From an uncultured Eubacteriaceae bacterium (GTDB lineage: Bacteria > Bacillota > Clostridia > Eubacteriales > Garciellaceae), in contig CAZHJK010000011.1 of the NCBI GenBank assembly GCA_964533275.1, forward strand, positions 5,572 to 69,571: DNA of 64,000 bases, written 5' to 3'. Both the position numbers and the translations under genes were made by a program. Shown piece by piece: positions 25,896-50,112 of the stretch (the first letter of the stretch is position 1; every line of letters starts with the position of its first letter). A model generated the notes under the pieces. That model did no database searches. It saw only the letters and a list, made by a program, of their open reading frames with translations, and was not told where the DNA came from.

Positions 25896-26000
25896 TAAAA
25901 AAGCTGCCAAATATATTTGGCAGCTGAACCGTCGTAGTATAAATACCTTAGACTTCAAACTTTGCGTCCTTATCTTTCGATAAGTTTGCCTTTATCAAAT
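25896..26000 (-). promoter_or_regulatory. c-di-GMP-I (GEMM-I) riboswitch, operon-proximal copy, with its own intrinsic terminator
   Basis: The minus strand reads AAAGGCAAACUUAUCGAAAGAUAAGGACGCAAAGUUUGAAGUCUAAGG...ACGACGGUUCAGCUGCCAAAUAUAUUUGGCAGCUUUUUU. GGCAAAC, the GAAA tetraloop hairpin, GGACGCAAAG and UCUAA match the Vc2-type consensus. Confidence 0.8.
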
Positions 26001-26088: not shown

Positions 26089-26197
26089 AAAAACCAAAAG
26101 CTGCCAAAATTAATTTGGCAGCTGAACCGTCATAGTACAAGACTTTAGACTTCGAGCTTTGCGCCCTTATCTTTCGATAAGTTTGCCTTTGTCAAAT
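26089..26197 (-). promoter_or_regulatory. c-di-GMP-I (GEMM-I) riboswitch, distal copy, with its own intrinsic terminator
   Basis: Second ~100-nt copy (GGCAAACUUAUCGAAAGAUAAGGGCGCAAAGCUCGAAGUCUAAAG...CAGCUGCCAAAUUAAUUUUGGCAGCUUUUGGUUUUUU). Differences from the proximal copy fall mostly in loops or stem positions. Confidence 0.8.
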
Positions 26198-26387
26198 AAG
26201 TAGTATTTAATTCTTACTAAATATATCTATTTACTATGCTTAGGAATATATATACACTGGAAATTTTTGTTTAAACACAATTTTTATTAGTTATTAAGTT
26301 AACAAGTTTTATTTTGGACTGACACAAATGTATGTATGTGGTAATATAATATAAATAACTCTTTGTTTCTTTATGAAAATAAAAACA

Positions 26388-26505
26388 AACTGAACAGGCG
26401 ATGGACGCTTTTGCGTTTCATAGTGGCCGGGCTATCATATGATAGCAGCAGATGATATTTACATCTGTGGGACAGAATTAATATTGTTCCATAGATGTTT
26501 TTTAT
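26388..26505 (+). promoter_or_regulatory. NiCo (czcD-motif) riboswitch with an overlapping terminator
   Basis: CUGAACAGGCGAUGGACGC...CAUAGUGGCCGGGC...GCAGCAGAUGAUAUUUACAUCUGUGGGACAG matches my recollection of the czcD motif. The terminator acatctgtgggaca / tgttccatagatgt + TTTTTT shares its 5' arm with the aptamer's 3' end. A CDF gene lies downstream. Confidence 0.7.
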
Positions 26506-43277: not shown

Positions 43278-43886
43278 TTGAATAAAGTCAGTACTCTAAA
43301 AGTCAGGTTTAAATGATGATAAAAATACGATTTATCCTGTAATAAAATAATTATAACTCACCACGATTTCGATCATATGGGATCTTTGGCAGCATTTAAA
43401 AGAAAGTACCCTTCTATAAAAGTAGTAGCATCCATAGATGATAAAGAATATATCAATGGAAGTAAAAAATCACTAAGACTACAACAAGCAGAGTCTATAT
43501 ATGACTCTTTACCAGAAGGAGAAAAAGAAAGTGCAAAAACTTTTCATAGAATACTTAAATCAATAGAGCCCTGTAATGTAGATATATGCGTGAAAGACAA
43601 GGATTTTTTTGATTACTGTGGAGGTATAGAAATAATTTCTACTCCAGGACATATGCCAGGACATATTTCAATTTACATTAAATCTACATTAATTGCTGGA
43701 GATGCATTAGTTTTTGAAAATGATGAAACTTACTATTCCAAATCCACAGTATACATTAGATATGAATGAGGTAAAAAATCAATTGTAAAATTATTAGATT
43801 ATGAAATAGATAGTGTTATTTGCTATCATGGTGGCATTTGTAATAAGGGTATTAAAAATTCACTAAGAGAAATTGTTTCAAGTTGA
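43278..43886 (+). pseudogene. Decayed MBL-fold hydrolase gene (frameshifts plus N-terminal deletion)
   Basis: AGGAGG-TTG start (LNKVSTLKVRFK*) runs into stops. THHDFDH is in a second frame. The C-terminus (KLLDYEIDSVICYHGG...) is in yet another frame after the listed ORF stops at 43769. Confidence 0.75.
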
Positions 43887-44000
43887 TATGGGACAATTGG
43901 GAAGTATGAAGTCGAGGTAGCAAGTTATGAACTCAGGACGCTATATGAATGGCACGCAAGCCTATGGATGGCCTTTTTAATAATCTTCAACTTTATTTTG

Positions 44001-44029
44001 TTGACTTATTGTATTCATTATTGTATAAT
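44001..44029 (+). promoter_or_regulatory. Near-consensus sigma-A promoter of the C-M-DUF262-HEPN operon
   Basis: TTGACT (44001-06), 17 nt, TATAAT (44024-29). A 9-nt direct repeat ttattgtat lies at 44006-14 and 44018-26. Confidence 0.7.
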
Positions 44030-44034
44030 TTAAA

Positions 44035-44283
44035 ATGGGTGATAGTATGGATGCATTACAGATATTTTCACATAATTTGAAGAAGTTAAGAATCCAAAAA
44101 GGATTTTCCCAAAAAGAAATTGCTGAAATTTCGGGGTTACATCGCACTTATATTAGTGCAATTGAATGTGGCAAACGTAGTATTGCTCTAGATAATGTGC
44201 AAAAAATAGCAGATGCTTTAGGTGTACAGCCTTATCAACTGTTTTTGATAAATAATAATAACACCAAAACTAAGGAGGTGTAG
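44035..44283 (+). CDS. Controller (C) protein-type XRE HTH regulator of a restriction-modification-like operon
   Basis: KLRIQKGFSQKEIAEISGLHRTYISAIECGKRSIALDNVQKIADALG resembles C-protein HTHs. ATG 44035 lies 6 nt after the -10 (possibly leaderless). ATG 44047 is the alternative. Confidence 0.7.
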   Translation: MGDSMDALQIFSHNLKKLRIQKGFSQKEIAEISGLHRTYISAIECGKRSIALDNVQKIADALGVQPYQLFLINNNNTKTKEV

Positions 44284-44285
44284 CT

Positions 44286-45347
44286 GTGCCCTGTTCAATA
44301 GTTGATTTATTCTGTGGTGTCGGAGGTTTAACCAAAGGGCTTGAGCTTGCTGGCTTAAATGTTGTTGCAGGTATAGACATTGACGATAGTTGCAGTTTTG
44401 CTTATGAGCAAAATAACAATGCAAGATTTGTTCAGGGTGACATTACCGATATTGATATACAATCTGTTTTAGAATTGTTTCCAGAGGGTGATATGCGGAT
44501 ATTAGTAGGATGTGCTCCGTGTCAGCCATTCTCAAAATATACTCAACGCTATCGTAAAGATGGACAAAAGGATGATAAATGGAAATTATTATACTCCTTT
44601 TCCAATATTGTAAATGAGTTAAGACCTACCGTAGTTTCAATGGAAAATGTTCCAGAATTGGCAAAGGAGTCTGTTTTTAATGATTTTGTTAAGAGTTTAG
44701 AAAAATTGGGTTATTATTGTTCTTGGTCAATAGCATATTGTCCAGACTATGGTGTACCACAAAAACGCAAACGTCTTGTACTATTAGCGTCACTTTTGGG
44801 CGAGATAACTCTTATTCCTGCATTATATAATTCGGAAAATTATCAAACAGTACGAGATGCTATTGGAATGTTACCAGCTTTGAGAAGTGGGGAGATAAAT
44901 GATAATGACCCTATTCACTGTTCAACTAAGATGTCTTCTATAAATATAGAAAGAATACAACAATCTGTACCAAATGGTACATGGAGAGACTGGGAAGAAC
45001 ATTTAAAATTACCTTGTCATAAGAAAAAAACGGGTAAAAGCTATGGTGCTGTGTATGGTCGTATGGGATGGGATGAACCATCACCGACTATAACAACTCA
45101 ATTTTATGGATACGGAAATGGACGTTTCGGTCATCCTGAACAAGATAGAGCTCTTTCTTATAGAGAGGGTGCTCTTTTACAATCATTCCCGCCGGGATAT
45201 ATATTCATAAATAGAGATGAACCTTTTAACAGGCGTCAATTAGGAATCCACATTGGTAACGCTGTTCCTGTAGAATTAGGGCGTGCTATTGGTTTAAGCA
45301 TTACTCAGCATTTACAAGAAATGGGGGTGGAAATTCATGGCGAATGA
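44286..45347 (+). CDS. DNA (cytosine-5)-methyltransferase
   Basis: Motif I DLFCGVGG, IV GCAPCQPFS, VI MENVP, VIII QKRKR, X GNAVPV. GTG start after AAGGAGGTG. Confidence 0.9.
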   Translation: MPCSIVDLFCGVGGLTKGLELAGLNVVAGIDIDDSCSFAYEQNNNARFVQGDITDIDIQSVLELFPEGDMRILVGCAPCQPFSKYTQRYRKDGQKDDKWKLLYSFSNIVNELRPTVVSMENVPELAKESVFNDFVKSLEKLGYYCSWSIAYCPDYGVPQKRKRLVLLASLLGEITLIPALYNSENYQTVRDAIGMLPALRSGEINDNDPIHCSTKMSSINIERIQQSVPNGTWRDWEEHLKLPCHKKKTGKSYGAVYGRMGWDEPSPTITTQFYGYGNGRFGHPEQDRALSYREGALLQSFPPGYIFINRDEPFNRRQLGIHIGNAVPVELGRAIGLSITQHLQEMGVEIHGE

Positions 45348-46392
45348 TATAACAGATGTTAAACGAAAAGAAGGGGAGGAACAAATTAAAGAATTGAGAA
45401 AAGAGATAGACTATGATACTCGTGATTATTCTATTGATTTTCTTGTTCAGCAGTATAGAGAAGATGAATTCTATATACCAGATGAATATCAAAGAAAATA
45501 TATTTGGGAAGATGCTAATAAGACCAGATTTATTGAATCTATATTATTGGGACTCCCCATCCCTTTTATGTTTTTCTCTGATACAGATGATGGTCGTTGT
45601 GAAATCATTGATGGAGCACAAAGAACACAAACCTTGGTTGAATTTATGGATAATGAATTAAAACTGGTTAACCTGAAAAAGCTTTCTGCACTTAATAATT
45701 TTACCTATTCAGATTTACCTGAGTATTTCAAGAGAAAATTCAATAAGACGACTATGAGAATAATCGTTCTTTCTGATGAAACTACTATAGAAATTCGTCA
45801 AGAAATATTTAACAGAATTAACACTACTGGGGTTCCGGCTCGTCCTAGTGAAATTCGTAGGGGTAGTTATGCAGGATCTTTTATGAATTTTCTTAAAGAA
45901 TGCACAGAGAATCCTGTGTTTATGCGTGTTTGTCCTGTAAGCAAAATATCTAAAAAAAGATACGAAGACTTAGAGTTAGTATTGAGGTTCTTTGCGTTTA
46001 TAAATAATTATAAATCTTTTGTACACAGAGTTGATGAGTTTTTGGATAGCTATGTTGAAAGTATTCAAGATGATTTTGATAAAACCGCATTTCAGCAAGA
46101 ATTTGAAAACATGCTAAACTTTGTAGATAAACACTTTGACTACGGATTTAGAAAAACAAAAAATGCAAAATCCACTCCTAGAGTTCGGTTTGAAGCTATT
46201 GCTGTGGGGGTTGGTTTAGCGTTAAGAGAAAAACCAAACTTAGTTCCAGCATCTATGGATTGGCTTGAAAGTAAAGAATTCAAAATCCACACAACGACTC
46301 ATGCCAGTAACTCTCAAGCACGAGTATCTGGGCGTATCGAATATGTGAGGGATGCTCTGTTGGCAGGTGATGAAAATGCAAGCAACGATTGA
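45337..46392 (+). CDS. DUF262 (ParB/Srx-fold, GmrSD-N-like) protein without a fused nuclease domain
   Basis: IPDEYQRKYIW ... CEIIDGAQRTQTL (DGQQR-type motif). 11-nt overlap with the methyltransferase gene. Confidence 0.75.
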   Translation: MANDITDVKRKEGEEQIKELRKEIDYDTRDYSIDFLVQQYREDEFYIPDEYQRKYIWEDANKTRFIESILLGLPIPFMFFSDTDDGRCEIIDGAQRTQTLVEFMDNELKLVNLKKLSALNNFTYSDLPEYFKRKFNKTTMRIIVLSDETTIEIRQEIFNRINTTGVPARPSEIRRGSYAGSFMNFLKECTENPVFMRVCPVSKISKKRYEDLELVLRFFAFINNYKSFVHRVDEFLDSYVESIQDDFDKTAFQQEFENMLNFVDKHFDYGFRKTKNAKSTPRVRFEAIAVGVGLALREKPNLVPASMDWLESKEFKIHTTTHASNSQARVSGRIEYVRDALLAGDENASND

Positions 46393-47068
46393 CACCTTTA
46401 ATGAACGTATAGCCGAATTAGATTTATACTATTCTGCATTAGATCAGCTATATCTATCAAAGATAACTCCTAATAGCGGTGAAAGATATTTAGAAGATGA
46501 CTTTTTAAAGATATTAAAATCTAATGCCTTACTTATGAATTATAACCTTGTAGAATCCACAATTATGGGTGGTATTCTAGAAATATATGCTGAATTAGGC
46601 CAGCATGGGATAACATATAAAATGGTTCGCCGAGAAATACAAGATATTTGGTTTTCTTTCAAATTCAATCAAGTCTATGATAAAAATGCGCATTATCACT
46701 CATATCGGGACAAGGCATCCGAGATTATAACTTCCATTTTATCTGATGATACATTAGCTTTAGATAGAAAGACAACCGATTTTAGCGGAAATTTAGACGC
46801 TGATAAAATCCGAATTATTTGTCAAGACCACGGAATCCACTTTAATTTAGACAGAAAATGCCGAGGGGGTATAGTTTTATCGGATGTCAAAGACAAAAGG
46901 AATAACCTTGCTCATGGCACTATTTCATTTGTAGAATGTGGTCGTGACTATTCAATTGAAGATCTTACTAAAATAAAAAATGAAACTGTATTTTTTCTTA
47001 AAGATATTCTCAATGGGATGAAAGAATATTATGACGACAAGCTTTATCTATCTGCATCAAATCAATAG
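46370..47068 (+). CDS. HEPN-like protein (Rx4H motif), MAE_28990-like by recollection
   Basis: KDKRNNLAHGTISF near the C-terminus, in an all-helical-looking sequence. Start is ATG 46370 or 46376, inside the 3' end of the DUF262 gene. Confidence 0.6.
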   Translation: MKMQATIDTFNERIAELDLYYSALDQLYLSKITPNSGERYLEDDFLKILKSNALLMNYNLVESTIMGGILEIYAELGQHGITYKMVRREIQDIWFSFKFNQVYDKNAHYHSYRDKASEIITSILSDDTLALDRKTTDFSGNLDADKIRIICQDHGIHFNLDRKCRGGIVLSDVKDKRNNLAHGTISFVECGRDYSIEDLTKIKNETVFFLKDILNGMKEYYDDKLYLSASNQ

Positions 47069-47223
47069 AAAAAAGTATAGAATATGGGGTCAGAGAATAT
47101 GGGATCTTGAATTATTTTTAGAATTAGAAGTAGGAGCAGAATATATATCCCTACTCTCTTCTTATCTAAAACTTAAAGATAATAGTAAGAAGTAAATATG
47201 TTATAGAATTATTTCCAAAGAAA

Positions 47224-47318
47224 TGAAAGGAACTTACATTGACTATTCTACTGAAAGAGCTTAATCCTCAACAGGCCGGGGTACAGCATACAGAAGGATA
47301 ATTACTTATTTTAGCTGG
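47224..47318 (+). pseudogene. Diverged duplicate of the pcrA RBS and first ~26 codons
   Basis: gaaaggaacttaca-TTG ACT ATT CTA CTG AAA GAG CTT AAT CCT ... GGG GTA CAG CAT ACA GAA GGA TAA TTA CTT ATT TTA GCT GGG, compared with pcrA 50098-50197 (MSNLLKGLNPEQAQGVQHTEGPLLILAG). One codon is deleted and there is an in-frame stop. Confidence 0.8.
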
Positions 47319-47647
47319 GTGATATTCTTGTATAAAAAGATATTACGAATTGTAAGGTAGATAAATGAATAGTTAAAGAAGGTGAACATATAGGGAGGGA
47401 GTCCTTATATGTATGTTAAAGGTTGAAAGTAAGAGGTTGCATGTAATTATTATATATAGGGAAGATACTTGTAATAATATAATAGAAAATATGGTACAAA
47501 TGAAGGTAAATGGAAAATTATGTAAAAATTTAAATTGATATGAGAAACTACAACAGTAACTTATAGGCAAGTAGTTGCGATTAGTACAACATAAAATTAG
47601 TTTAATATGTATAACGACTACATGTTCATTATGCAAGGAGACCAACT

Positions 47648-49093
47648 ATGAGGATACAAGATATACTTAGAACTATACAAAATAATTTCTATATAGCATT
47701 CATATTGATTGTTATATTAGCAGTACTTTTAGGATTTGGATATTTTATAATATACAAGAAGTTTTTAAAGGGAAATAAAAAGTTTAGTAAGCGAAAGGTT
47801 TTTATTTTGTTTTGCCTTATTGGATATATAATTATGGTTATAGGAGTTACATTTCTAAATAGAGGTGTTAGAATATATGGTGATACAAATCTTCATTTGT
47901 TTAGTTCATATAAAGAAGCTTGGAACTCTTTTAATTCTACAACTTGGAGATTTATTATATTAAATATATTTATGTTGGTTCCTCTTGGGATACTACTTCC
48001 ACTGCTAAATAAGAGGTTTTGTAAATTCCGCTGGATATTTGGGGCGACATTTCTAATGACATTGATAATAGAAACAATTCAACTTATAACAGGATACGGG
48101 ATATTTGAATTAGATGATATATTTAATAATGTACTAGGAGCTATAATTGGATATGGAATTATTATGACGATTATAACTTTTATGGAAAATAGAAAAAGCA
48201 AGTTTAAAAAATCAATAATCTACCTTATTCCGTTGATATTAGTTATAGTTTCGTCTTTTGCAATAGTTGGAGTATATAATTCAAAAGAATTTGGTAATCT
48301 CTACATAGCGTATAATTATAAAATAAATATGAAAAATATAGAATTGAGTTTAAATACAGAAATAGACGAAACCCAAGAAGTATTTTTAAACAATGGTAAA
48401 TACAGTATAACAAAAATTCCAATATATAAGGCACCGATTTATGAAAAAGATAGCGGAAAAGAAGTCTTTATAAATTTCCTAAAGGATAAAGATATTAGTA
48501 AGGAGATAGAAGTGGATCCATACAATGATATGGCTATATATTGGTCAAGGGGAGAAATATCTTATAATATGTGGTTTGACTATAATGGTGGAACCTATAA
48601 CTATAGGGAATTTTCTTCTTTTGATGGTGATATAGAAAGGGCTAATACCGATGAAGGGAATTTATTAAAGGAATTAGAAAAGTTCAATATTATTATCCCA
48701 AAAGCAGCAGTTTTCAGTAAGGTAGATGATAGAAATGAAGATGGGATATATCAATGGTCAGTAGAAAACAATGTAGCTGGGGAATATATAACTAATGGAA
48801 ATTTAACTGTTGAATTCTATAGTGATGAAAGTATAAAGGATATAAGTAATAATATAATAAGATATAAAAAGGTAAAAGATGTATCCATTAAAAGTAAAGA
48901 GGAGGCATATAAAGAATTAAAACAAGGAAAATTTAATCTGTATAAGTCCGAAGATGTAAAAGCCATAGAAGTAGACAATATAAACCTTTCGTATATGCTG
49001 GACACTAAGGGCTTTTATCAGCCAGTATATAGTTTTGAATCAAGGATAGATGGAAGGGATGTAATCATATCAATTCCAGCACTACAGTTCTAG
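47648..49093 (+). CDS. VanZ-family membrane protein with a ~280-aa extracytoplasmic C-terminal domain
   Basis: VanZ-like core (NIFMLVPLGILLP...IETIQLITGYGIFELDDIFNNVLGAIIGY), a further TM, then a soluble domain. AAGGAG RBS. Confidence 0.7.
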   Translation: MRIQDILRTIQNNFYIAFILIVILAVLLGFGYFIIYKKFLKGNKKFSKRKVFILFCLIGYIIMVIGVTFLNRGVRIYGDTNLHLFSSYKEAWNSFNSTTWRFIILNIFMLVPLGILLPLLNKRFCKFRWIFGATFLMTLIIETIQLITGYGIFELDDIFNNVLGAIIGYGIIMTIITFMENRKSKFKKSIIYLIPLILVIVSSFAIVGVYNSKEFGNLYIAYNYKINMKNIELSLNTEIDETQEVFLNNGKYSITKIPIYKAPIYEKDSGKEVFINFLKDKDISKEIEVDPYNDMAIYWSRGEISYNMWFDYNGGTYNYREFSSFDGDIERANTDEGNLLKELEKFNIIIPKAAVFSKVDDRNEDGIYQWSVENNVAGEYITNGNLTVEFYSDESIKDISNNIIRYKKVKDVSIKSKEEAYKELKQGKFNLYKSEDVKAIEVDNINLSYMLDTKGFYQPVYSFESRIDGRDVIISIPALQF

Positions 49094-49138: not shown

Positions 49139-50004
49139 GGGGACGGTGACTTTATTATCCATTATATTCCAATTACTTTAGATTTACTTAAACCTGTGGA
49201 CTTGATTATCTGATTATTAGTTAATCCTTTTGATTTTAGTGTTTTTATAAGGAGAATTCTTTTTTCTACGCTAATTTCTCCTATAGCCTTGATGCCTTGT
49301 ATTCTCATTTCTGTATTGATTATTTCTTCAGCTTCTATATCCGTTCTTTTCACATTATCAATGTTAAGACAAATGGGTTCTAGTTCTTCCTTATTTAGTT
49401 CCTTTACAAACAGATCCACCGCTTTGATCTTATCATTATGTAACATATCTAAGAAAAATCTTGTATCGGTTAGGAAGCTCTTGTTAATATATTCGTGATA
49501 GCTAGACCACCTGTAATCTCTAGGATTCTCCACCACTTTTCCTTTAACTGGGTTATTTAAAATATATTTTAGTACCATAAAGAAATAAGAGTTTGTTTCT
49601 ACGCATTCACTTTTAAAGCGATCCTGAAAGAGATGTCCTACTCGATGATGCTGGTAGTTGTACCAAGCGGCATATTTTCCACAAATTTTCTTCATAATAA
49701 AACTGATTGATATTTCATTCTCTTTTATTAGAAAGTGTGCGTGATTATCCATTAAACAATAAGCATATAGTTCGAAGTTCGTTTCTTCTTTTGTATCTAG
49801 CATTATTTCTAAGAATTTATTTTTATCATTTTTGTCATCAAAAATAACTGCTCGATTAATTCCTCTTATCATAATATGATATGTCTCAGTTGTGCTTATC
49901 TTCCTGGCTGCTCTTGGCAATATCATCACTCCCCCTTTTAATAACAATAATAGCATTTATTACATAAAATTGCTATATATTAGGAGAAAAAAGTCACCGT
50001 CCCC
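49139..50004 (-). mobile_element. RAYT-like unit: Y1 transposase gene bracketed by inverted REP-like repeats
   Basis: ggggacggtgactttattatccattatattcc (49139-70) and its inverted counterpart atatattaggagaaaaaagtcaccgtcccc (49975-50004) flank the gene. Confidence 0.75.
49162..49926 (-). CDS. IS200/IS605-type Y1 (HUH) transposase, REP-associated (RAYT)-like, with a C-terminal HTH extension
   Basis: YHIMIRGINR, HUH motif DNHAHFLI, GHLFQDRF, YILNNP (catalytic Tyr region). The start is set at MILPRAAR after AAGGGGGAG. The stop codon lies inside the REP copy. Confidence 0.8.
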   Translation of the reverse strand: MILPRAARKISTTETYHIMIRGINRAVIFDDKNDKNKFLEIMLDTKEETNFELYAYCLMDNHAHFLIKENEISISFIMKKICGKYAAWYNYQHHRVGHLFQDRFKSECVETNSYFFMVLKYILNNPVKGKVVENPRDYRWSSYHEYINKSFLTDTRFFLDMLHNDKIKAVDLFVKELNKEELEPICLNIDNVKRTDIEAEEIINTEMRIQGIKAIGEISVEKRILLIKTLKSKGLTNNQIIKSTGLSKSKVIGI

Positions 50005-50112
50005 ATATGCCCTTTTAAAAATCTGTCCTTTTAATCCCCCTTAAATTTCTATATAATAAAGTAAGTAAATCGAACATATTGTTTGTTTTGTATTTTAGAA
50101 AGGGGTTACAAA

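Follow-up and report, generated by a model that had tools for sequence, protein, structure and literature searches.

Cassette organisation

The DNA considered here is a stretch of 64,000 nucleotides (nt) of contig CAZHJK010000011.1, from an uncultured Eubacteriaceae bacterium, which is referred to below as the window. Positions 43999-47071 of the window hold a single operon of four plus-strand open reading frames (ORFs), read from the ORF list and its translations, which encode a controller protein (C), a C5 cytosine DNA methyltransferase (M), a DUF262/ParB-fold protein (D) and a HEPN protein (H) (Table 1). We present evidence that M, D and H make up one co-inherited mobile system, and consider whether it could act as a restriction-modification (R-M)-like defence in which the effector is a predicted ribonuclease.

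The ORFs in 44001-47068 are of 82 amino acids (aa; the helix-turn-helix, or HTH, protein), 353 aa, 351 aa and 238 aa. TTGACT-17-TATAAT (44001-44029) is the sole match at 11 of 12 promoter positions within 43300-47700, and is predicted to be a sigma-70-type promoter giving rise to a translationally coupled C-M-D-H transcript. An initial annotation of this DNA had described the four same-strand ORFs, the near-consensus promoter and the 11-nt overlap of M and D correctly, and every motif it quoted is found in the translations. The start codons of H and of the controller are revised here. H most likely starts at ATG 46376, because an AGGTGA Shine-Dalgarno (SD) sequence lies 6 nt 5' of this codon, homologues are 226-232 aa long and the gene is publicly annotated with a product of 230 aa. 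H is then most likely of 230 aa and not ~233 aa, and its overlap with D is most likely 17 nt, which is neither the ~20 nt annotated nor 41 nt. The controller, annotated as 82 aa, most likely starts at ATG 44047 and has 78 aa; this start is favoured because relatives have GAGGTG-N7-ATGGAYGC at the same place. A leaderless mRNA beginning at ATG 44035, 6 nt past the -10 element, was considered less likely, since it is 44047 that aligns with the SD-ATGGAYGC of the relatives.

DNA homology to relatives with unrelated flanks runs from 43999 (43938 in the closest relative) to 47071, and therefore 44001-47068 delimits the mobile cassette almost exactly. The G+C content is 33-35% in the cassette versus 26-30% in the flanks. 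The neighbours of the cassette are ordinary genes (an apparently frameshifted metallo-beta-lactamase (MBL)-fold gene and a VanZ gene), with no defence island.

Table 1. Predicted features of the cassette, in window coordinates.
Feature	Position	Strand	Description
Promoter and controller operator	43988..44029	+	-35 TTGACT 44001-44006; -10 TATAAT 44024-44029
Controller C	44047..44283	+	XRE-type HTH with HRTY recognition helix; alternative start 44035
C5 cytosine DNA methyltransferase M	44286..45347	+	GTG start, 2 nt past the C stop codon
NsnA-like DUF262/ParB-fold NTPase D	45337..46392	+	C-terminal all-helical ParBDB-like domain; 11-nt overlap with M
MAE_28990-family HEPN protein H	46376..47068	+	Predicted RNase effector; 17-nt overlap with D

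Methyltransferase M

For comparison with the window, about 150 loci were gathered from genomes, metagenomes, viral contigs, plasmids and phages and classified by hidden Markov models (HMMs); 56 non-redundant M-D-H triads were used for the statistics on motifs and co-diversification.

M matches Pfam DNA_methylase (1e-62, over residues 4-339) and dcm (TIGR00675, NCBIfam; 1e-40), and contains the C5 methyltransferase motifs FCGVGG, PCQPFS, ENV, QKRKR and GNAVPV. It is predicted to be an intact C5 methyltransferase, and its catalytic motif PCQ is invariant in all 56 triads. The M proteins of distant clades are 48-55% identical to window M, with ~40% for D and ~25% for H in the same clades, and unrelated C5 methyltransferases that neighbour those loci are at ~25-29% identity to window M. 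By these comparisons M belongs to a dedicated methyltransferase subfamily, whose members invariably lie beside D-H. The best-conserved segment of M (231-295) takes in the widely conserved PSPTITT/motif IX region, and the truly variable part (171-230) has 40-52% conservation. The idea that conservation of the target recognition domain (TRD) indicates a fixed methylation specificity was dropped for this reason.

In some relatives a gene for a Vsr mismatch endonuclease lies directly 5' of M, which suggests that M is active in vivo. Such a gene, encoding a 138-aa vsr-type endonuclease of very-short-patch repair with the sequence DGCFWHGH, is present at locus L068 (265-3980) and at many of the loci L063-L097, and 5' of it there is a second set of HTH, C5 methyltransferase and 317-aa genes resembling a separate Type II R-M system. 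Restriction genes that abut M-D-H occur at L024 (1864-3855), L155 (5391-7197) and L029 (3706-3831), and are respectively a LlaJI-type restriction endonuclease (REase) gene (Pfam, 5.6e-52), a convergent NgoMIV-type REase gene with a second methyltransferase gene, and an HNH fragment.

DUF262 protein D and HEPN protein H

D matches Pfam GmrSD_N/DUF262 (6.5e-27). Its match to the PADLOC profile NsnA (2.5e-67, residues 15-339 on positions 33-377 of 385) is stronger than that to PD-T4-2_A (1.5e-40, residues 36-336). D carries EYQRKYIW and IIDGAQRTQTL, and its motif forms YQRKYIW, DGAQR and FNRIN correspond to YQRxxxW, DG[AS]QR and FxRxN, which are invariant in 56/56 triads. The structural model combines an alpha/beta N-terminal domain with helices alone over residues 181-342, where the predicted local distance difference test (pLDDT) score is ~90. 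The DUF262 domain (residues 42-187) is the only part of D matched by PDLC03418, a PADLOC model of 372 positions for a Type II REase (1e-15), and distant homologues of D are matched as well; some family listed under Type II REases is therefore built on DUF262.

H matches the Pfam family HEPN_MAE_28990 (PF18737) with 4.3e-17 and 63.4 bits against a cutoff of 26.8 bits. The match covers residues 13-232 of the protein and positions 6-211 of the 211 of the profile, which is its full length, and the Pfam profile search gave no match of window H to PF18735. H carries KRNNLAHG, and the pattern RNxL[AS]HG (Rx4H, R175...H180) is invariant in 56/56 triads, including clades that are ~25% identical. The AlphaFold2 (AF2) model of H has seven helices and no sheet (pLDDT 79), and its top match in BFVD is a phage MAE_28990-like HEPN protein with a template modelling (TM) score of 0.73-0.80. 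H is predicted to be the HEPN ribonuclease effector of the cassette. The MAE_28990 HEPN family as a whole comprises ~1,000 clusters at 50% identity (E <= 1e-10). Fusions of D and H were looked for as a Rosetta-stone test among the top 150 HEPN representatives and none was present, all of these being stand-alone proteins of 100-320 aa. No PADLOC model matched H or five distant homologues of it (E <= 1 or 0.001).

Searches for a hidden restriction endonuclease

The initial annotation had noted no recognisable REase domain in the operon, and this was upheld by profile and structure searches. Pfam, PADLOC and NCBIfam searches of the four proteins gave no PD-(D/E)XK, HNH, GIY-YIG, phospholipase D (PLD) or half-pipe domain, and neither Pfam nor PADLOC matched the DUF1524 His-Me nuclease domain anywhere in the cassette. 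H is all-alpha, and the NsnA profile covers D. Foldseek searches of the PDB with the models of H and D returned nothing at E < 0.1 and no nuclease fold; for D there were only non-significant matches to Noc and sulfiredoxin, both of the ParB/Srx fold, obtained with an N-terminal model of pLDDT 47-68. The Foldseek results add nothing to what the profiles show. Family profiles run against PDB sequences matched only BrxU (E = 0.28), and did so at the QRxxxW motif. The C-terminal domain of D was also considered as the place of a cryptic His-Me site (HTTTHASN), which was rejected as its histidines are not kept in distant clades.

Linkage and co-inheritance of M, D and H

A C5 methyltransferase gene is adjacent in 137 of the ~150 D/H loci, and most of the others end at contig edges. 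Three gene orders are found, namely M-D-H (112 loci), D-H with a convergent M (21 loci) and D-H-M (4 loci), and the D and H genes overlap or are separated by a gap of <=12 nt in every case. The linkage to M is kept where H is only 23-29% identical, as in Rhodococcus, Roseomonas, Klebsiella, Polaromonas plasmids, Moraxella phages and a P2-like phage. Hosts include Bacillota, Pseudomonadota, Actinomycetota, Planctomycetota, Synergistales and Vampirovibrio.

The three proteins also diverge together, with Spearman correlations of pairwise distances across the 56 triads of 0.77 for M-D, 0.83 for M-H and 0.82 for D-H. When M homologues were sampled blind to their neighbours (Selenomonas noxia, Dehalobacter TeCB1 and two others, at 54-69% identity), 4/4 were followed by GmrSD_N and HEPN_MAE_28990 genes. 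The identical cassette adjoins integrase, Mob/NikA, integrative and conjugative element (ICE) or housekeeping genes in different genomes, and is also found on prophages and plasmids. The conserved linkage to M in three gene orders, the co-diversification, the blind sample and the invariant motifs together identify M-D-H as one integrated, co-inherited mobile system with predicted catalytic motifs intact.

Broken genes, compared to probe the addiction logic, show no asymmetry. A broken D accompanies an intact M in 4 loci, another 4 have a split M beside whole D and H genes, and a truncated H occurs in 1-2; metagenome assembly errors are possible among these. At two D-H-M loci (L115 and L117) D is 63-65% identical to window D, with H only 24-26% and M 49-50% identical to their window counterparts, indicating that a D of the window clade has recombined onto an H and M of a distant clade.

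Controller protein and C-box

C matches Pfam HTH_3 (6e-17) and the PADLOC R-M Control_protein model (1.1e-22), and the motif LHRTYISAIECGKRSI is present in its translation. Its recognition helix HRTY is a trait of the C.PvuII class, for which the operator is GACT-nnn-AGTC-TGTA-GACT-nnn-AGTC and the inner spacer is preferably TAT (PMC2647307). A proximal C-box, GACTTATTGTAT, lies at 44003-14, overlapping the -35 element, and is the single exact occurrence of this sequence in the window. In 9/9 diverse C-bearing relatives a tandem pair of GACTTATTGTAT with a spacing of 15 bp is located just 5' of C, again with the proximal copy overlapping the -35, and loci that lack C also lack the C-box motif. 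The window controller is accordingly classed as a predicted C.PvuII-class regulator with an operator overlapping the -35.

The distal C-box, in the activating position (~43988-44000), is degenerate in the window, as it is in the closest relative (L013), and two good copies are retained in the other lineages that have C. Because of this degenerate distal copy and the near-consensus promoter, C probably works here mainly by autorepression, capping the output of the entire operon. The degenerate distal box and consensus -10 suggest that this lineage has moved to constitutive transcription, with C as a repressor only.

C is present in 12/56 non-redundant lineages, all with the M-D-H order. The conservation of C and its C-box in this subset implies that expression needs control of the kind seen for toxic R-M genes. 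The C gene lies 5' of M as well as of D-H in a single transcript, and C alone therefore cannot delay the effector relative to the methyltransferase. The operon had been described as "C-protein-gated", which overstates the role of a controller that is optional and stands 5' of M too.

Relation to known systems

The neighbourhood itself has been listed before. Anantharaman et al. (2013, Biol Direct 8:15, Table 1; PMC3710099) give the MAE_28990 family with a ParB-like protein and a DNA methylase, which are the same family and the same operon partners as in the window cassette. That entry, one line of a table, describes neither the architecture of the operon nor its regulation, distribution or mechanism. 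Sequence comparison here documents the controller with its C-box, three gene orders, an M subfamily dedicated to the system and co-diversification of the proteins. Full-text searches of the literature found no mechanistic study of MAE_28990 HEPN proteins, of PD-T4-2 or of a methyltransferase with DUF262 and HEPN, in keeping with the initial annotation, which held that the adjacency had appeared in surveys without a mechanistic account. A 2025 review of host-dependent R-M makes no mention of HEPN and covers DUF262 only for GmrSD, BrxU and SspE. The neighbourhood is thus not new, but the system is uncharacterised and is absent as such from PADLOC.

PD-T4-2 is a two-gene DUF262 and HEPN system active against T4, from E. 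coli ECOR65, and its deletion in the native strain restores T4 plaquing (Vassallo et al., 2022; PMC9519451). It shares with the cassette a DUF262 gene that precedes the gene of a small HEPN protein, and window D matches PD-T4-2_A. However, the cloned PD-T4-2 region spans 1.8 kb and its two ORFs do not include a methyltransferase, whereas the window family has M in 137 of ~150 loci. The HEPN protein of PD-T4-2 is assigned to PF18735, whereas window H belongs to PF18737 and has no match to the component B profile, and for window D the NsnA profile is a far better match than PD-T4-2_A.

Menshen (NsnABC; Millman, 2022; Li et al., 2025, NAR) resembles the cassette in that window D is NsnA-like, with a ParB-DUF262 domain and a helical ParBDB domain. 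It differs in what follows, since there is no NsnB ABC ATPase gene 3' of window D, where the next gene is the 230-aa HEPN gene, and no third gene for the NsnC inPIN nuclease; homology goes no further than the HEPN stop codon, and there is no conserved ORF in the next 580 nt. A C5 methyltransferase is an occasional neighbour of Menshen but obligate in the window family. Li et al. (2025, NAR) describe methylase-linked Menshen loci without a nuclease, and independently raise the possibility that the ParB-DUF262 protein might act on unmodified genomes.

In GmrSD, BrxU and SspE, DUF262 is an NTP-dependent modification sensor that drives a linked nuclease (PMC10952713, PMC12065111). Window D has the same QRxxxW, DGxQR and FxxxN motifs, and the cassette appears to share the logic of a sensor with a nuclease effector; as with SspE, there is pairing with a cognate DNA-modification module. 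In contrast to all three, the cassette has no DUF1524 His-Me nuclease, and its effector is a separate HEPN protein, a predicted RNase and not a DNase or nickase. GmrSD and BrxU, which attack modified DNA, work without a cognate methyltransferase, whereas the predicted modification by the cassette is 5-methylcytosine (5mC) made by a single enzyme. Type IV restriction in general is directed at modified DNA and lacks a cognate methyltransferase, unlike the window family with its co-diversifying C5 methyltransferase. A DUF262 protein without a fused DUF1524 had been called unusual, which does not hold, as DUF1524 is likewise missing from three validated DUF262 systems, Menshen, Dazbog and PD-T4-2.

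Type II R-M systems of the PvuII class are similar in the HRTY helix, the double C-box (GACT-TAT-xxxx, 15-bp period) over the controller's own promoter, although only the proximal box is intact in the window, and a C5 methyltransferase in a compact mobile cassette. The cassette differs in having no recognisable REase fold (with a low-confidence N-terminal model of D), in the position of C, which precedes M and the effector in one operon as against a C-R operon with an independent M, and in its right half-site, TGTA and not AGTC. PrrC with EcoprrI is another parallel, being an RNase of the HEPN superfamily coupled genetically and functionally to R-M and leading to abortive infection. PrrC guards a complete Type I R-M enzyme, the inhibition of which by a phage is its trigger, whereas the cassette has no DNA-cleaving R-M enzyme to guard. 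Characterised HEPN domains are RNases (PMC3710099; DARNA preprint). M-D-H appears mechanistically distinct from Type II R-M, GmrSD/SspE, Menshen and PD-T4-2.

Proposed mechanism and alternatives

The reading that we favour, and to which we give about an even chance, is that the cassette is a mobile R-M-like defence and addiction element whose restriction arm is a two-protein sensor-effector and not a DNA endonuclease. M would place 5mC on a specific motif of the host DNA as a self mark. D, as a ParB/DUF262-fold NTPase with a helical DNA-binding domain, would read DNA in an NTP-dependent manner like GmrSD, BrxU and SspE, and would recognise incoming DNA that does not carry the mark, unmethylated DNA being presumed foreign. 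It would then activate its co-expressed partner H, perhaps through physical coupling of the two. H would cleave cellular and/or phage RNA, arresting translation and so causing abortive infection or growth arrest, with no DNA cutting. More tentatively, and somewhat short of even, the cassette may represent a class of R-M with an RNase effector, in which discrimination of self from non-self by C5 methylation is uncoupled from DNA cleavage and D, on detecting unmarked DNA, releases H. A split sensor-effector using host 5mC was already suggested in the initial annotation; it fits the strong reciprocal linkage of M, D and H, but its self-mark mechanism is something that we infer. Homologues without conserved linkage to methyltransferases would, by that annotation, have counted against it, and the opposite is clearly observed.

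Several points weigh against this proposal. The operon is a single transcript with C first, and M has no head start, so that the rule of methyltransferase before toxin is not built in. The best-studied DUF262 enzymes, GmrSD and BrxU, attack modified and not unmodified DNA, and the model of D is poor in the N-terminal DUF262 domain (pLDDT 47-68). An intact D-H pair without a methyltransferase is carried on IncF plasmids of E. coli and Salmonella, the sole clear case among the ~150 loci. As M-less pairs are tolerated both there and in PD-T4-2, D-H is not intrinsically lethal without M, and such pairs could have another trigger. M is also split into two ORFs, with apparently intact D and H, in the 4 loci L039 (P2-like phage P2_4B2), L046, L051 and L066. 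These are either sequencing or assembly errors or natural M-defective cassettes, which if real would argue against strict addiction.

Other explanations of the same genes can be given. D itself might be a DNA endonuclease acting on unmethylated DNA, with H as a back-up suicide RNase in the way that PrrC is for EcoprrI. The match of the Type II REase model PDLC03418 to the DUF262 domain of D speaks for this, and the strong linkage to M applies equally. We nevertheless think it unlikely, because in GmrSD, BrxU and SspE it is the fused DUF1524 His-Me domain that cuts, with DUF262 as the NTPase and sensor, and DUF1524 is absent here. The invariant residues of D are those of NTP-pocket motifs, the sole histidine-rich patch of its C-terminal domain (HTTTH) is not kept in distant clades, and H is co-inherited and motif-conserved as strictly as D, unlike an optional accessory. 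Rather unlikely, too, is a licensing role like that of Ssp, whereby D would read host 5mC as an activating or positioning signal and M would be needed for defence and not for self-protection. The R-M controller and C-box in some lineages suggest control of toxicity, whereas the single operon, in which M has no head start, and the tolerated M-less D-H pairs would fit a non-toxic D-H. SspE is itself a DUF262 protein with an NTPase stimulated by the host's own modification, and licensing would explain the conserved M linkage equally well.

The remaining two explanations have very little probability. According to one, D-H is an abortive infection (Abi) module like PD-T4-2, or a Type IV-like module, that happens to lie beside an orphan or separate C-M cassette, and this takes in the second suggestion of the initial annotation. 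Defence genes commonly cluster, and the D-H pairs of PD-T4-2 and of IncF plasmids work or exist without a methyltransferase. This explanation is nonetheless largely refuted by the deep, reciprocal linkage, as the same M subfamily occurs in 137 of ~150 loci, in three orders and several phyla and down to an H identity of 23%; M, D and H co-diversify and the blind-sampled M homologues are 4/4 with D-H. The gene overlaps of 11 and 17 nt, and cassette boundaries that enclose the four genes exactly, likewise speak against independent neighbours. The other is that D-H tunes or limits methylation by M, without any attack on invaders. DndB, a negative regulator of phosphorothioation, is a ParB-like domain fused to HEPN (Makarova et al., 2013), and the C-terminal domain of D is of a DNA-binding type. 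An Rx4H dyad that is invariant in 56/56 triads, however, argues for an active nuclease, carriage on prophages, plasmids and ICEs resembles that of a defence or exclusion system, and some lineages already have a dedicated transcription regulator in C. A regulatory role of this sort is therefore hardly probable.

Wider significance

If the sensor-effector proposal is true, methylation self-marking and RNase-based abortive infection, which are usually separate logics, would be joined in ~3 kb and three enzymes, and an R-M class with an RNase effector would extend across Bacillota, Pseudomonadota, Actinomycetota, Planctomycetota and Synergistota, their phages and plasmids. It would also offer a tractable system for studying how DUF262/ParB-fold NTPases read modification state and signal to a separate effector, questions of sensing and signalling that concern Menshen, Dazbog and PD-T4-2 as well. 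The cassette is widespread in environmental as well as gut bacteria. Gut microbiome assemblies contain it in abundance, and the index of the sequence collection has 1,836 blocks for a single HEPN cluster. Its carriage by mobile elements (ICEs, prophages and plasmids) may let it influence gene flow in the gut and the host range of phages there. Current tools would mis-annotate it, as PADLOC, having no model for H, would show an incomplete Menshen or PD-T4-2 system plus a methyltransferase.

Flanking DNA

The gene just 5' of the cassette (43377-43883, plus strand) resembles an MBL-fold hydrolase gene by eye, and its ORF has no Pfam match. It seems frameshifted, with a 130-aa ORF that ends at 43769 and a C-terminal part, ending in VICYHGGICNKGIKNSLREIVSS and a stop codon, in another frame. 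On the 3' side, the 5' end of pcrA occurs as a second, decayed copy at 47239-47320 (plus strand), reading LTILLKELNPQQAGVQHTEG, a stop codon and LLILAG as compared with SNLLKGLNPEQAQGVQHTEGPLLILAGAG in the intact pcrA at 50083. Between the two pcrA copies are a VanZ-like gene and an IS200-like Y1 transposase gene (49162-49956, minus strand), and the duplicated pcrA 5' end suggests a past insertion or rearrangement at the site.

Elsewhere in the window, two tandem c-di-GMP-I riboswitch aptamers are present on the minus strand at 25916-26000 and 26114-26197 (79.8 and 75 bits). Divergent from this pair, on the plus strand at 26380-26477, there is a NiCo (nickel/cobalt) riboswitch (58 bits).

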